This document shows, piece by piece, positions 40,424-48,166 of a stretch of 64,000 bases of DNA (position 1 is its first letter; every line of letters begins with the position of its first letter). This DNA is from Candidatus Nomurabacteria bacterium (GTDB taxonomy: Bacteria > Patescibacteriota > Minisyncoccia > Phycocordibacterales > UBA9973). Where the stretch lies: positions 668,619 through 732,618 of the forward strand of contig CP064958.1 in assembly GCA_016699085.1 (NCBI GenBank), in the 5' to 3' direction. Made by a program: the position numbers and the translations under genes. The notes below the pieces were generated by a model that saw only the letters and a list, made by a program, of their open reading frames with translations, ran no database searches and had not been told where the DNA came from.

Positions 40424-40458
40424 AAGCGTCGATCGAAATTGGTTGACGCTTTTTATTT
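40424..40458. terminator. rho-independent terminator
   Basis: GCGTC-gatcgaaattggtt-GACGC followed by TTTTTATTTT. Confidence 0.6.
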
Positions 40459-40884
40459 TCTGTATTTCTTACTTCTCCACTTGTCCGCTATTTTTACTCT
40501 ATTGAGTGAGCGTTCGAGTTCCGCCTCGAAGTGTTCAAAGTCGACATCGGACTCGTTCTTCATTTTCATGAGCTCTTCTGCTCGTTTCTTTGCTCGTTCA
40601 ATATCGATCTGAGCTACAGGCTCGGCGGTACTCGCAAGGATTATTATTTCGCTACCTGACTTTACTTCGACAAAGCCTCCGGAAACTGACATTGGGGAAA
40701 CTTCACCTTCTCCTATGTGTTTTGCCACAATTTCTCCTGTGCCAAGAGAAGCAATAAGTGGCACATGCCCTGGCAGTACTGTTATCTCCCCTTCAGTTGT
40801 AGGAAGGGTTACTTGTTCCACCTCTTCTTCGAGAATCATACGCTCAGGAGTAACTATCTTCAGTTTTAGTGTTTTAGTTGACAT
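40453..40884 (-). CDS. atpC: F1 ATP synthase subunit epsilon
   Basis: KLKIVTPERMILEEEVEQVTLPTTEGEITVLPGHVPLI signature. Confidence 0.92.
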   Translation of the reverse strand: MSTKTLKLKIVTPERMILEEEVEQVTLPTTEGEITVLPGHVPLIASLGTGEIVAKHIGEGEVSPMSVSGGFVEVKSGSEIIILASTAEPVAQIDIERAKKRAEELMKMKNESDVDFEHFEAELERSLNRVKIADKWRSKKYRK

Positions 40885-40932
40885 ATCAATATTAATAATG
40901 TAAGATTTTTGAAAACAATTAAATAAAGAAAC

Positions 40933-41184
40933 ATGAATCTACTCTATCTTGGTCCACTTTCAGTGCTAGTAATCTTAAGCCTTATGTGCCTGTCATACTA
41001 TTATGATCAGAGAAGTAAGAAATTAAAGGAATTCAGAGAACACGGTATATTTGGTGTAATTATTACAGGTTCGCCTTATTACCAGAAATCTGAAAACTGT
41101 ATCAATCTAGGAAAACTTCTGACTACTCTTCTGGTACTAACCTATTGTATTAGTCTGCTACTTTGGGCATTAGGTCTTAATTGA
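40933..41184 (+). CDS. small membrane protein (opposite strand, inside atp locus)
   Basis: 83 aa, N- and C-terminal hydrophobic helices; followed by hairpin plus T6. Confidence 0.4.
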   Translation: MNLLYLGPLSVLVILSLMCLSYYYDQRSKKLKEFREHGIFGVIITGSPYYQKSENCINLGKLLTTLLVLTYCISLLLWALGLN

Positions 41185-41329
41185 TCTCAAATGATTCCTA
41201 ACTTTCTTTAATTTTAACACACTCAGTAATGGGGGTGTTTTTTACATTGCTCCCCTCATGTAAAAATCCTGCTCCCCTTTCTCATCATGCCCGCCCGCCA
41301 GAGTACTGACATTCGGGTAAACTTGCCAT

Positions 41330-42700
41330 CTACATACTACCACGCATGTAGAATTCACTTTCGCTTTTCTCGTCATGCTTACCGTCGAGGATTTCTCGAA
41401 AAGAACGAATAGTATCTTCAAGCTTCACATACTCTCCTGCGCGGCCAGTAAACTGCTCTGCAACGAAAAATGGCTGCGAGAGGAATCGTTGGATCTTACG
41501 CGCGCGAGTCACAAGCTCCTTATCTTCTTGTGAGAGTTCTTCCATACCCAAAATCGCAATGATGTCTTGGAGGTCTTTGTAGCGCTGAAGTACTCGCTGG
41601 ACTTCACGGGCAACTTCGTAGTGCTCTTTCCCGACAATGTTGGGATCAAGAATCGTCGATGATGAATCGAGTGGGTCAACAGCTGGATAAATACCGAGCT
41701 CAGAGAGTGAACGGTTAAGTGTTACGGTCGAGTCTAGGTGCGCAAATGTCGTTGCTGGAGCAGGGTCAGTCAGGTCGTCAGCCGGCACATATACGGCCTG
41801 TACGGACGTTACAGAGCCTTTATCGGTCGAAGTGATGCGTTCTTGCATGTTGCCCATTTCTGATGCCAATGTTGGCTGATAACCCACTGCAGATGGAATA
41901 CGTCCCAAGAGTGCCGATACTTCAGAACCAGCCTGTGTAAAGCGGAAAATATTATCAATAAAGAAAAGCACGTCTTTGCCTTCTTCGTCACGGAAGTGCT
42001 CAGCCATTGTGAGCCCCGTAAGTCCCACTCGTGCACGCGCGCCCGGTGGTTCATTCATTTGTCCGAAGACCATGGCAACTTTATCCAGCACTCCTGAGTC
42101 TTTCATTTCATGATAGAGATCGTTGCCTTCACGAGTTCGCTCTCCAACACCTGCAAATACTGAGTAACCGCCATGGTTGGATGCAATATTGTGAATGAGC
42201 TCTTGAATGACCACAGTCTTGCCCACACCTGCACCACCGAAGAGTCCGACCTTGCCACCTTTTAAGACTGGACAGATAAGATCGATAACTTTGATACCAG
42301 TTTCTAATATTTCTACTTTGGTTGATTGAGCAGTAAATGCTGGTGGCTTACGATGGATTGCAGAGCGTTTGTCAGACTTAGTTTTCTCTTTACCATCGAT
42401 CACATCGCCCAAGACGTTGAAAATTCTCCCAAGCGTATCTGTGCCAACAGGTACTGAGATAGGCGCACCGGTGTCAATGACTTCCATACCTCGATACATG
42501 CCGTCAGTAGAATCCATGGCAATCGTGCGGATAACGTTGTTGCCGAGGTGGTACTGTGTTTCAAGAACGACTCTTTTACCGTCAATTTCAGTTTCAATTG
42601 CGTTATATATTTCCGGGATATGGTTTGTGAATTCTATATCGACAACCGGCCCGATAATTGTTTTTACTGTTCCTTTCATAATTATTTTTCTATTGACCAA
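41330..42700 (-). CDS. atpD: F1 ATP synthase subunit beta
   Basis: GGAGVGKTV Walker A, DELSEED-like region, 456 aa. Confidence 0.97.
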
Positions 42701-42936
42701 GGACTACCTGGTGTTTTTATGTAATTAATTAATTCAATAAAATTCTTTGTTACTGTATGTTGATCTTTCAATGATTTCAATTTAACAATCTTTTTTTTAA
42801 ACGTTCCTGAACTATCAGTAATATTTTCTACCGTAAACTTTTCACCACCATCATTCTGTACAAGTGTTTTCTTCTTTAACCACTCTTCTGAGTACTTTTC
42901 AGGTCCCATATTTATTTTTAATTTGCTTTCATCCAT
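42682..42936 (-). CDS. small hypothetical protein between atpG and atpD
   Basis: 84 aa soluble, Lys-rich; translationally coupled on both sides (overlaps atpD start by 19 nt). Confidence 0.45.
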
Positions 42937-42939
42937 ATA

Positions 42940-46193: not shown

Positions 46194-46194
46194 A

Positions 46195-46692
46195 TTACTT
46201 TAATTCTTTTACTGCATTATCGACTAATGCTGCATCAATCTTTGGTGTCATTGTACCAGTCAAAACTTTCTCTGTTGCAGAAATTACTAAATTCCCAAGC
46301 TCTTTCTTTGCATCATCAAGCATTTTCTGCTTCTCAGCTTCGAGACTTGCTTTACCATTTTTCATGAGTGCTTCTACGTCAGCTTCAGCAACTTTGAGTA
46401 GTTCAGCACGCTTCTGATCTGCATTTCTCTTTGCATCAGTTAGTATATCTGCACCTTCTCTGCGAGCTTGAGCTAACGCTTCGTCATAGGCTTTCTGTGT
46501 GTTTGCTAGAAGTATTGCATTTTCCTGACCTTGTGCTAAACCTTCTGCAATTTTATGAGACCGTTCATCCATAAGCTTTCTGATTGGCTTGATAGCAAAA
46601 TACCAAAGCGCAAGAAACACAATGCCGAAATTAATCGCCTGTGCGAGCATAATTTTCCAGTCTATGTGAAATGTAGAAATAAGAGAGTCCAT
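46195..46692 (-). CDS. atpF: Fo ATP synthase subunit b
   Basis: single N-terminal TM then long charged helix with the AEA.R.EA pattern. Confidence 0.9.
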   Translation of the reverse strand: MDSLISTFHIDWKIMLAQAINFGIVFLALWYFAIKPIRKLMDERSHKIAEGLAQGQENAILLANTQKAYDEALAQARREGADILTDAKRNADQKRAELLKVAEADVEALMKNGKASLEAEKQKMLDDAKKELGNLVISATEKVLTGTMTPKIDAALVDNAVKELK

Positions 46693-46721
46693 ACTATTCG
46701 CTGTTCACTATTTACTTTTTA

Positions 46722-46949
46722 CTACTTGAGCGAGAACGCGATAACGAGCGCATAAATAGCAATAGCTTCTGCGAATGCTGATGCAATAAGCATCGGGACG
46801 AGCACTTTGTTGGCTGCTTCAGGATTGCGACCGATCGCTTCCATAGCACGAGAACCAATCATACCAATACCAAGTCCAGGACCAATAGCACCGAGACCAA
46901 TAGCGATAGCTTTTGCGAGTGGGATAAGATCCACAGCTGTGTTTTCCAT
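46722..46949 (-). CDS. atpE: Fo ATP synthase subunit c
   Basis: two TM hairpin, GRNPEA loop, conserved Glu in [12 protein letters not shown]. Confidence 0.93.
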
Positions 46950-47040
46950 AAAATATAAATAAACTACTAGACTAATAATGACATCTTATAATGTAGATGT
47001 TCTCTATCGGCGAATACCTCGTCAAGAGAGAACAGTTACA

Positions 47041-47922
47041 TTAATGTTTTTCTGCATGAGCTTCATCATGATCCTCTGATGCAATAGAGAAATAGACCAA
47101 CGTAAGCATTGAAAAAATGAGTGCTTGGATAAGTCCAACAAAAATTTCAAGACCAATAAATGGAATCGGCAAGACATATGCGAGGAGCGCTGCCATCGAA
47201 GCTAAGAGCACTTCTCCAGCAAAGACATTACCAAAAAGACGAAACGAAAGTGATGCGACTTTTGCGGCTTCACCAACAAGCTCAAGAACGCCAACAAAGA
47301 ACATGACTGGTGCAACCATAAGAATACTTGGATCTTTGCGAACGTCGGTAAAAACTTTGCCAAACGCCTTCAGATTAACATATTTATTGAATGTTTTCCA
47401 GGCGCCAATTGAGAGAATGCCAAACAGATTAGAGCCAAGCACTGCCATTACTGCAAGTGCAAGTGTCGTATTAATATCTGCTGTTCCGCTACGTAAAAAT
47501 GGCAAGAAGGCACTTTCACCACCATGCTCGGCAACTAAACCAAAAGCGCCAAGTGGCAATATACCTAACCAGTTGTTGATGAGGATAAAGAAAAATACTG
47601 CGAGTGCAATAGGGAAAATTTTGAGCGATTTTGCACGATTGCCAGTGATTTGATCAGTAAGATCAAGAGTCTGCTCTATAATTACTTCAAACAATGTCTG
47701 AAGTTTACTTGGCACCTTTTTAATGCTAAACCTCACGGCAATAGCCAAGATCACAATAATACCTACCGCGATCCAACTCGTAAGAAGTGCGTTTGTTATT
47801 GTGAAGTTACCAATATGCCCGATCGGCTCGGCATATATCGTCACCTCATGAACAATTTCGTGTGAAGTATCCGTAGTATGTAGCTCGGTTTCGTTATCTA
47901 AAATTTCGTTTTCGTTATGCAT
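47041..47922 (-). CDS. atpB: Fo ATP synthase subunit a
   Basis: LSFRLFGNVFAGE conserved Arg helix, 5-6 TM. Confidence 0.92.
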   Translation of the reverse strand: MHNENEILDNETELHTTDTSHEIVHEVTIYAEPIGHIGNFTITNALLTSWIAVGIIVILAIAVRFSIKKVPSKLQTLFEVIIEQTLDLTDQITGNRAKSLKIFPIALAVFFFILINNWLGILPLGAFGLVAEHGGESAFLPFLRSGTADINTTLALAVMAVLGSNLFGILSIGAWKTFNKYVNLKAFGKVFTDVRKDPSILMVAPVMFFVGVLELVGEAAKVASLSFRLFGNVFAGEVLLASMAALLAYVLPIPFIGLEIFVGLIQALIFSMLTLVYFSIASEDHDEAHAEKH

Positions 47923-48166
47923 GTGTTTGATTGTCGTTGTCTTTAAGAGTTTGCAAATACTTTTTTATTACCTTGAGAATACCGAAAATAGAGATGAAAA
48001 ACGCCAATCCAGTAAGCCCGAGAAATATCCATGGTTCTGTGCCAAAAGTTCGATCTAGATATTTCCCAACGAATAAAGCAACAACAATTGGGATAGCGAC
48101 CCACGTGCTTACTCGCCCAAATATAACGAGTGAGTCATACCACCATGGTTTTTGTTTTTTATCCAT
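47915..48166 (-). CDS. AtpZ/AtpI-like small membrane protein
   Basis: two TM, position as first gene of the atp operon; start trimmed to MDKKQKPWW because the longer ORF overlaps the tRNA-like fragment. Confidence 0.55.
   Translation of the reverse strand: MDKKQKPWWYDSLVIFGRVSTWVAIPIVVALFVGKYLDRTFGTEPWIFLGLTGLAFFISIFGILKVIKKYLQTLKDNDNQTHA

Follow-up and report, generated by a model that had tools for sequence, protein, structure and literature searches.

The 64,000-nt stretch of a Candidatus Nomurabacteria bacterium genome analyzed here (contig CP064958.1, positions 668,619 to 732,618; hereafter the window) carries an F1Fo ATP synthase (atp) operon on its minus strand in the order tRNA-Ile-atpZ-B-E-F-s74-H-A-s59-G-s84-D-C. 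In this order, s74, s59 and s84 are small open reading frames (ORFs) of 74, 59 and 84 aa, and the 445 nt between atpD and atpC hold a further ORF of 83 aa (opp83) on the plus strand. This is a canonical Patescibacteria operon with a clade-typical short delta subunit, and our results suggest that its junctions probably host small optional genes in one subclade. The junctions between cistrons would act as landing sites for small genes that differ by lineage, and recombination through conserved sequence at the ends of the neighbouring atp genes would bring such cargo in or remove it. The small ORFs would be co-transcribed by read-through with a constitutively needed operon and translated by coupling across gaps of 0-13 nt. 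Of the four ORFs, s74, s59 and opp83 may be recent arrivals and s84 an old resident that was repeatedly lost or replaced.

Related loci (designated by L-numbers) were found with the gamma subunit gene atpG as query. The nearest loci by gamma all belong to Patescibacteria (metagenome-assembled genomes of Paceibacterota or Parcubacteria), with a best identity of 71%, and the gene order atp(I/Z)BEFHAGDC is common to about 30 related loci. Most relatives have compact operons, those of the sister group (L001, L004, L006 and L084-L090) being tight and canonical, and relatives without inserts have spacers of only 1-70 nt. Other relatives carry genes of their own at these positions. At the atpA/atpG junction we found a 98-aa three-helix membrane ORF in L005, a 181-aa ORF in L083, a 67-aa two-helix ORF (o67) in L163, 1.35 kb in L009, and 2.1 kb in L002 that include the gene of a HicA toxin (PF07927) next to an ORF that is HicB-like by eye only (6261-6728). 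The atpG/atpD junction holds 1.8 kb with five ORFs in L005, among them one for DUF5674 (8371-8721), a gene for a 79-aa secreted Cys protein in L003 and, in place of s84, the gene for a 23S rRNA intervening sequence (IVS) protein (PF05635, 1206-1445) in L173. A 172-aa membrane ORF lies between atpH and atpA in L002, and a 140-aa ORF between atpD and atpC in L003. All three small-ORF junctions vary between close relatives, which is the pattern of optional accessory genes and not of core subunits. Full-text literature searches returned nothing on extra ORFs in the atp operons of Patescibacteria, nor a description of the short delta subunit of this clade.

The preliminary description of this operon had proposed that s74, s59 and s84 are novel accessory or assembly subunits of a divergent ATP synthase, or that they partly compensate for a truncated delta. 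The delta subunit has indeed 135 aa, but the statement that it lacks most of the N-terminal domain was too strong, as about 40-45 residues (approximately the first 50-60 profile positions) are missing and the protein passes the cut-offs of both family models (PF00213, 90 bits vs. 22.3; TIGR01145, 65.4 bits vs. 57.5). Its alignment begins at position 53 of OSCP (PF00213) and at position 62 of TIGR01145, and the profile of a full-length N-terminal helical domain is therefore not covered from its start. In all Patescibacteria relatives examined, delta comprises 127-141 aa and starts at OSCP profile position 42-87, compared with 178 aa in the Gammaproteobacterial controls of the same table. The short delta is a clade-wide trait, and most of the relatives that have it possess a compact operon with no extra ORFs. 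Since delta is short throughout the clade, with or without the small ORFs, their proposed compensation for a truncated delta is unsupported.

The other arguments for three novel subunits are the tight packing of the ORFs on the operon strand, frames that are not explained by chance, and the consideration that two membrane-type peptides could in principle join Fo. However, delta is short across the clade and the ORFs are not found across it, relatives have unrelated genes or nothing at the same junctions, s74 and s59 lack homologues outside near-identical strains, and s59 shows no signal of purifying selection. The three-subunit model thus appears largely refuted by synteny, and we regard it as very improbable.

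The open frames themselves are not due to chance. In 5000 dinucleotide shuffles per junction, ORFs of at least the observed length were obtained 0 times for s74, 13 times for s59, 0 times for s84 and 15 times for opp83. Together with the gaps of 1 and 0 nt around s74, 13 and 7 nt around s59, and 3 and 2 nt around s84, this bears out the earlier view that the small ORFs are real and tightly packed in the operon. Hydropathy analysis revealed one N-terminal hydrophobic segment in s74 (Kyte-Doolittle maximum 3.18, residues 5-23), one C-terminal segment in s59 (3.25, residues 31-49), two segments in opp83 and no such segment in s84. The idea that the inserts are structured RNAs and not ORFs was rejected, as the three inserts gave folding z-scores of 0.25, -1.73 and 0.63, and Rfam found only tRNA.

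Family searches did not assign the small ORFs to any known group. No family was found for s74 and s84 in Pfam (E≤1), where s59 gave only sub-threshold low-complexity membrane matches, and none for s74, s59 and s84 in NCBIfam (E≤0.1). These three likewise did not match the known ATP synthase accessory families in Pfam and NCBIfam (AtpI/Z, epsilon, zeta/DUF1476, IF1 and Atp11/Atp12). For none of the small ORFs did PHROGs, NCBIfam, PADLOC or Pfam yield a match that passed the threshold, and scans of viral contigs with s59, s74 and s84 were also negative, so that nothing in PHROGs, PADLOC or the viral contigs marks these ORFs as phage or defense cargo. Single-nucleotide polymorphisms within populations were too few for dN/dS estimates: none occurs in the small ORFs of L081/L082, and L178-181 as well as L186/187 are identical.

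Neither s74 nor s59 has homologues in about 30 related operons. A word-indexed search among 5.8 billion clustered proteins retrieved only the identical copy of s74, and for s59 only the identical protein and one 95% variant. BLASTP of the four small ORFs against the ORFs of 13 related genome loci gave no match, and phmmer against 173 related loci and the window detected no paralogues or distant homologues, s84 excepted. For opp83 there was no match in related loci or family libraries, and no dedicated protein-database search was run for it. It is flanked by a promoter-like site (40878-40906) and by a terminator-like hairpin (41219-41238; 6 pairs, 3 of them G-C); the terminator of its own that had been ascribed to opp83 can be recognized in this hairpin, although only as a weak match to the consensus. 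We conclude that s74, s59 and opp83 are young orphans encoding short membrane or secreted peptides, which most likely would be dispensable small envelope peptides, if functional at all.

The recent history of s59 can be traced in L173, a contig of 1.4 kb that shares about 88% identity with the window and carries s59 with 3 amino-acid changes. Over the 180 nt of s59, the two sequences differ at 4 positions, of which 3 are non-synonymous and 1 is synonymous (pS 0.026, omega ~0.8), and the two spacers, which are identical, add none (4 differences in 200 nt). This tract is part of an identity island at ~44040-43720 (~98% identical) that extends from the last ~20 nt of atpA to the first ~100 nt of atpG. 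Beyond the island, atpG differs at 13-24 positions per 100 nt, and over its whole length it has 94 synonymous differences (pS 0.47, dS 0.75, omega 0.05). A near-identical s59 tract between diverged atp genes indicates that recent recombination carried s59 between diverged strains, and its position in such a tract leaves no sign of purifying selection on s59 itself. As a test of its proposal, the preliminary description had named the conservation of the small ORFs in sister genomes. For s74 no such conservation was found, and for s59 it largely fails, with a single ~88%-identical strain sharing the gene. Neither ORF therefore co-occurs with the enzyme genes as expected of a subunit, s74 being absent from all relatives and s59 confined to this close strain.

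An alternative is that s74, s59 and opp83 are non-functional AT-rich spacers, with frames that are open by chance or that keep ribosomes on the mRNA. The lack of homologues for all three, the omega of s59 (on 4 differences) and the shuffles, in which the excess of s59 and opp83 was modest compared with s74 and s84, are consistent with such spacers, as is the fact that AT-rich DNA translates to membrane-like peptides rich in Ile, Leu, Phe and Lys. However, no shuffle matched s74, s59 is intact in a second strain, and the same-strand ORFs fill their junctions, lying no more than 13 nt from the upstream stop and no more than 7 nt from the next start. The short spacers of insert-free relatives also show that long ones are unneeded. 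We therefore consider it unlikely that the three orphans are spacers.

Further probable traces of recombination lie at the ends of conserved genes. Downstream of atpD, a degenerate copy of its last ~19 codons is found one nucleotide past the atpD stop, with 36 of 48 nt matching the true 3' end, and its peptide resembles the atpD C-termini of relatives (HDEKGEQ.FYM), for example that of L005, which suggests that the 3' end of atpD was replaced by imprecise recombination. At the other end of the operon, the 3' end of tRNA-Ile is present in two copies ~70 nt apart, and the tRNA gene is bracketed by a perfect 18-nt inverted repeat (48261-48278 and 48378-48395). Both the 32-nt copy and the inverted repeat are absent from the 10 relatives that share the tRNA-Ile-atpZ synteny, and among all loci the 32-nt copy was found only in the window and L081. 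In L005, 28 nt of the atpG 3' end (…SAGMASVS and stop) are present twice without mismatch, at 7855-7882 and ~9010-9037. The second copy lies 1127 nt into the 1.8-kb insert, so that the repeats flank its first ~1.15 kb, and forms the C-terminus of an unrelated 104-aa ORF.

These duplicated 3' ends at three places (tRNA-Ile, 32 nt exact; atpD; L005 atpG, 28 nt exact) also speak for an alternative in which a site-specific mobile element, for example an integrase-driven island or an integron-like cassette, uses the 3' ends of genes as targets and carries the inserts as cargo, much as tRNA-targeting integrative elements do. The HicA toxin gene in the junctions of relatives, and an ORF of relatives that by eye only resembles an excisionase-type DNA-binding protein, point in the same direction. 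However, no integrase or recombinase is found among the called genes in or beside the operon, where no targeted search was run. For this reason, and with only about 70 nt between its two copies, the duplicated tRNA end lacks the signature of a tRNA-targeting integrative element. Moreover, no cargo separates the two atpD ends, which lie side by side, neither direct nor inverted repeats flank the same-strand small ORFs, and viral contigs, PHROGs and PADLOC gave no matches. Transposon-like flanks around the three small ORFs were looked for, and none were found. A mobile element of this kind is quite unlikely, and we read the scars as probable traces of imprecise recombination at conserved gene ends, not of a defined mobile element.

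In contrast to the orphans, s84 has relatives elsewhere. The word-indexed search yielded one diverged homologue, P0002, with 65% identity (P-numbers designate clusters of the s84 family), and when 1.84 billion representatives were searched exhaustively with a HMMER profile, 26 clusters were recovered at E≤1e-3, 7 of them at E≤1e-10. In the alignment of the family, 1-4 N-terminal motifs of the type S-x-L-[KR]-G-K-L-L precede a domain of ~70 aa with the motifs SEEWLK..t.IQRDxGxEF.V and, at the C-terminus, LKTPGSPW. D29, L53 and W80 are invariant (alignment A2), and the s84 of the window fits this family definition. Pfam and NCBIfam searches of the family found nothing, and a search of PDB sequences with the family profile gave a single match at chance level (E 0.099). 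On these sequences, s84 defines an unnamed, sparse protein family.

Apart from the window, homologues of s84 are located at the atpG/atpD junction in P0002 (L163), P0006 (L175), P0008 (L178-181) and P0012 (L186). P0010 (L182) lies directly after atpG and P0007 directly after atpF, and for P0009, P0011, P0014 and P0022 no position in an atp operon was found. Where the junction is complete, the gaps on both sides of the homologue are 1-5 nt; in L182, where the downstream side is uncovered, the gene begins ~25 nt after atpG. The window and L163 share 54-59% identity in gamma, 83% in beta and 63% in epsilon, and Nei-Gojobori estimates of pN/pS between them are 0.26/0.83 for s84, 0.30/0.83 for atpG, 0.22/0.78 for atpC and 0.12/0.72 for atpD. 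The values of s84 are close to those of atpG and atpC, which argues for a real protein that is constrained like gamma and epsilon and has been diverging for as long as its neighbours. The conservation missing for the two orphans was thus found for s84, with homologues as well as purifying selection.

Four s84-bearing lineages are approximately equidistant (gamma 55-63%, beta 80-86%, s84 43-66% identity), and in neighbor-joining trees they group with L005, L083 and L173, apart from the insert-free group. This fits a long vertical residence of s84 at atpG/atpD, which may have begun before several lineages split. The gene is nevertheless dispensable. L083 and L179 share ~91% DNA identity, and L179 has an s84 homologue where L083 has a 24-nt spacer; in L173, whose gamma is 95% identical to that of the window, s84 is replaced by the PF05635 gene; and no homologue was found in L005 or in the whole sister group L001-L090. 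Its absence from the closest relatives (L173, L083 and L005) shows that s84 is an optional gene that was lost or replaced repeatedly, and s84 does not co-occur with the enzyme genes across the lineage as a subunit would. A switch of the Ser codon at the atpG 3' end that seemed to track the presence of s84 was not consistent across all lineages.

Some observations on the surroundings of s84 homologues can be added. As around s59, an identity island is seen here: L163 and L167 are 100% identical across the homologue and its flanks and then drop to ~80% identity in atpD. L164 is 100% identical to L163 through atpA, o67, atpG and the s84 homologue and becomes non-homologous ~40 nt into atpD (after ~2747 in the L163 frame); this break is either an assembly chimera or a further rearrangement at atpG/atpD. 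In L177 (P0014 at 482-1048; 56% G+C), the s84-family gene adjoins a gene for a VWA-domain protein, and its other neighbours, by eye only, are a putative phosphatase, a protein kinase and a replication-relaxation-type gene. In high-G+C DNA that is not from Patescibacteria, the family includes long members of 140-188 aa that carry 3-4 SxLRGKLLE repeats; the s84 domain is therefore not confined to atp operons.

The structure of s84 was modeled with AlphaFold2. While a model based on two sequences was poor (pLDDT 59.7), the 26-sequence model reached a pLDDT of 76.9 and consists of a disordered N-terminus followed by a helix, four strands, a helix and a strand. A Foldseek search of this model against the PDB gave no match below E 0.19, the best matches (E≥0.19) being the N-domain of EF-P/eIF5A, HEX-1, Tudor and CarD-type barrels. 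Matches in BFVD were weak (E 0.005-0.1, TM-score 0.5-0.6) and comprised small phage proteins, several of them DUF1653. The fold of s84 is thus predicted to be a small SH3-like barrel.

The question arises whether s84, and not s74 or s59, is a genuine non-essential F1-associated factor, i.e., a regulator, an inhibitor or an assembly helper, in a subclade of Paceibacterota. PMC11665869 describes Patescibacteria as having no respiratory chain and as possibly running the ATP synthase in reverse, which would make a dedicated regulator plausible. Of the 11 clusters with readable context, the window included, six are found at atpG/atpD or immediately downstream of atpG, and a seventh follows atpF, so that even this relocation in one lineage stayed inside the atp operon. 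The gaps to the neighbouring genes are tight, and s84 is as constrained as gamma and epsilon at a distance that saturates synonymous sites. Against such a factor, the gene is missing in L173, L083 and L005, whose atp genes are otherwise intact, and distant members are found outside atp operons, next to a DUF2238 gene in L183-185 and to the VWA-domain gene in L177. In addition, s84 lacks similarity to known ATP synthase subunits or regulators in Pfam, NCBIfam and PDB sequences, and its fold matches are generic small barrels only. We therefore hold this explanation tentatively, as possible but not probable.

The role of accessory or assembly subunits once proposed for all the small ORFs thus survives as a possibility for s84, which is conserved and recurs in atp operons, and falls for s74 and s59, which have no homologues. 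If a single guess is to be made, an optional F1-associated factor is the best one for s84, although a tentative one; otherwise s84 would be a long-term passenger that gains from the expression of the operon. More doubtful is the specific proposal that the s84 family is an unrecognized optional regulator of the Patescibacteria F1Fo ATPase, made between gamma and beta. Cationic amphipathic inhibitors and the C-terminus of epsilon act at the DELSEED-type loop of beta. It is a matter of speculation that the basic LKGKLL-type motif and the barrel of s84 dock on F1, with this acidic loop as one candidate site. In organisms that have no respiratory chain, the enzyme is probably a proton pump, and such a regulator would set its rate or direction.

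Several points weigh against our preferred explanation of the junctions as hosts of optional genes exchanged by recombination. The small ORFs have a G+C content of 28%, whereas the atp genes reach 39-48%, apart from delta with 34%. Low G+C was considered as proof of foreign origin, but at 0.22-0.25 the GC3 of the small ORFs is just a little lower than in many ordinary genes of the window, and the low G+C is thus weak evidence for it. The identity islands were seen on short metagenomic contigs (1.4 and 1.1 kb), in which strains may have been mixed during assembly; L173, however, differs from the window at 4 positions of s59 and at ~8 over the island, which indicates that it is not simply the window strain. 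The three same-strand ORFs show no flanking repeats, no target duplications and no nearby recombinase among the called genes (no targeted search). We infer co-transcription and translational coupling from spacing alone, and the fixed position of s84 at atpG/atpD would fit a functional tie at least as well as passive residence.

The features of the operon are listed in Table 1. All eight core subunits and the AtpZ-like protein match family models above the Pfam thresholds, with the families of alpha, beta and gamma (PF00006, PF02874, PF00306 and PF00231) taken from the source-contig annotation. L081, the JGI metagenome contig Ga0558120_00860, is 99.85% identical to the window, and its annotation was used for some genes. 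Every subunit family of an F-type operon is present, in the order atp(I/Z)BEFHAGDC on one strand. ORF calls, family matches and the source-contig annotation agree with the gene content and order given in the preliminary description, and atpC is, as stated there, parted from atpD by 445 nt with an opposite-strand 83-aa membrane ORF. Its account of a fully contiguous operon with junctions of 1-19 nt is correct around the small ORFs but not at atpB-atpE (91 nt), atpE-atpF (29 nt) and atpH-atpA (39 nt). A terminator scan detected no minus-strand terminator-like site between atpZ and the hairpin 3' of atpC, and neither a promoter nor a terminator specific to any of the three same-strand small ORFs was detected. 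The hairpin, which the scan scored on the plus strand, is likely the end of the operon transcript and would serve as terminator for the minus strand.

Table 1. Features of the atp operon region in the window, listed from the upstream tRNA gene to the hairpin 3' of atpC.
Feature	Position	Strand	Evidence or remark
tRNA-Ile(GAT)	48290..48362	-	ARAGORN; Rfam tRNA 77.6 bits
Repeated 3' end of tRNA-Ile, 32 nt, exact copy	48188..48219	-	Direct repeat D1, 100% identity
atpZ/atpI-like small membrane protein, 83 aa from ATG	47915..48166	-	PF09527 E 4.3e-9, 36.7 bits vs. cut-off 26.6
atpB (Fo subunit a)	47041..47922	-	PF00119 E 2.3e-41
atpE (Fo subunit c)	46722..46949	-	PF00137 E 1.3e-17
atpF (Fo subunit b)	46195..46692	-	PF00430 E 3.1e-23
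s74, orphan 74-aa ORF	45969..46193	-	N-terminal hydrophobic anchor or signal sequence, two Cys
atpH (delta), 135 aa	45561..45968	-	PF00213 E 2.4e-25, profile positions 53-170
atpA (alpha)	44022..45521	-	Pfam domains in source-contig annotation; 76-78% identity to relatives
s59, orphan 59-aa single-pass membrane ORF	43829..44008	-	Hydropathy; shared by one ~88%-identical strain
atpG (gamma)	42940..43821	-	PF00231 in source-contig annotation
s84, soluble 84-aa protein	42682..42936	-	LKGKLL-type N-terminal motif and predicted SH3-like barrel ending in TPGSPW
atpD (beta), start = ATG (MKGTVK...)	41330..42679	-	Pfam domains; 80-83% identity to relatives, N-terminus common
Degenerate second copy of the atpD 3' end	41242..41301	-	LAGGHDEKGEQDFYMRGAM and stop, out of frame with atpD
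opp83, orphan 83-aa two-helix membrane ORF	40933..41184	+	Called as gene on source contig
atpC (epsilon) with C-terminal helical domain	40453..40884	-	PF02823 E 2.6e-23; PF00401 E 4.5e-8
12-bp hairpin directly 3' of atpC	40424..40451		Stem nearly palindromic; scan scored + strand (T-run after hairpin)

A tRNA-Ile gene upstream of atpZ is also present in 10 relatives, and L004 and L087 have the tRNA in the opposite orientation. Just upstream of the tRNA-Ile/atp block, the minus strand of the window encodes an RNA-binding protein with an RRM domain and a Gly/Arg-rich tail (48577-49074; PF00076 in the source-contig annotation). On the other side, a plus-strand ORF of 145 aa (39971-40408; 33% G+C) without family match lies between atpC and a rhodanese/UPF0176 gene. 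In L163, atpC and the rhodanese/UPF0176 gene are adjacent, with a gap of 35 nt and no 145-aa ORF between them. The 145-aa ORF makes a fifth insertion specific to this lineage, in this case at the operon's edge.

Possibly similar insertions were noticed at a distance from the operon. Three low-G+C ORFs of 133, 81 and 232 aa (57981-59325, minus strand) lie between two apparent transketolase-half genes, and the 81-aa ORF contains, by eye only, a DUF1653-like HYKG..Y motif. An 87-aa ORF with 31% G+C (7291-7554, plus strand; MHYVYILQS…YTGCT), GIY-YIG nuclease-like by eye only, sits between genes that by appearance only are LexA-like and DinB-like. Accessory ORFs inside conserved gene pairs may thus be a genome-wide feature here.

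Our findings point to the junctions of an essential operon as sites of turnover for small membrane or secreted genes and even toxin-antitoxin genes, and such hot-spot junctions bear on how genes are gained and expressed in reduced genomes. With s84, they provide a concrete candidate for an ATP synthase-linked factor in a phylum that has no respiratory chain and in which the role of the enzyme is debated. The N-terminal region of delta holds the N-terminus of alpha in model enzymes, and it is this region that the clade-wide truncation touches.

Compared with the canonical atpIBEFHAGDC operon, the operon of the window has the same eight core subunits and an AtpZ-like protein in the same order, but adds four lineage-specific ORFs and a tRNA-Ile gene directly upstream, and its delta lacks ~40-45 N-terminal residues, as is typical of the clade. 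Free-standing accessory genes that are wedged between conserved genes and spread via their flanks are known from phages, as morons and as the intergenic homing-endonuclease genes of T4-like phages. There, as here, optional genes lie at the junctions of a conserved, highly expressed block, and in the relatives of the window different cargo occupies the same junction and the identity islands reach into the flanking conserved genes. Unlike in these phage systems, the host is a cellular chromosome and the small ORFs have no nuclease or recombinase domain.

For s84, two comparisons can be made. DUF1653 and other small SH3-like barrel proteins are among the best BFVD fold matches of the model, yet the E-values are weak, and the Pfam DUF1653 model matches neither s84 nor any of 26 family members. 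Accessory proteins and regulators of ATP synthases that are small or encoded in the operon include AtpI/UncI, AtpQ/AtpR of N-ATPases, the zeta subunit of alphaproteobacteria, AtpTheta of cyanobacteria and mitochondrial IF1, and some small non-core genes in atp operons elsewhere proved to be those of regulators or assembly factors. The s84 protein, too, is small, is not a core subunit, and is encoded in the atp operon and conserved in multiple lineages. In contrast to them, it is dispensable between close strains, has no sequence similarity to any of them, and is predicted to fold as a small SH3-like beta-barrel instead of a helical hairpin or bundle.

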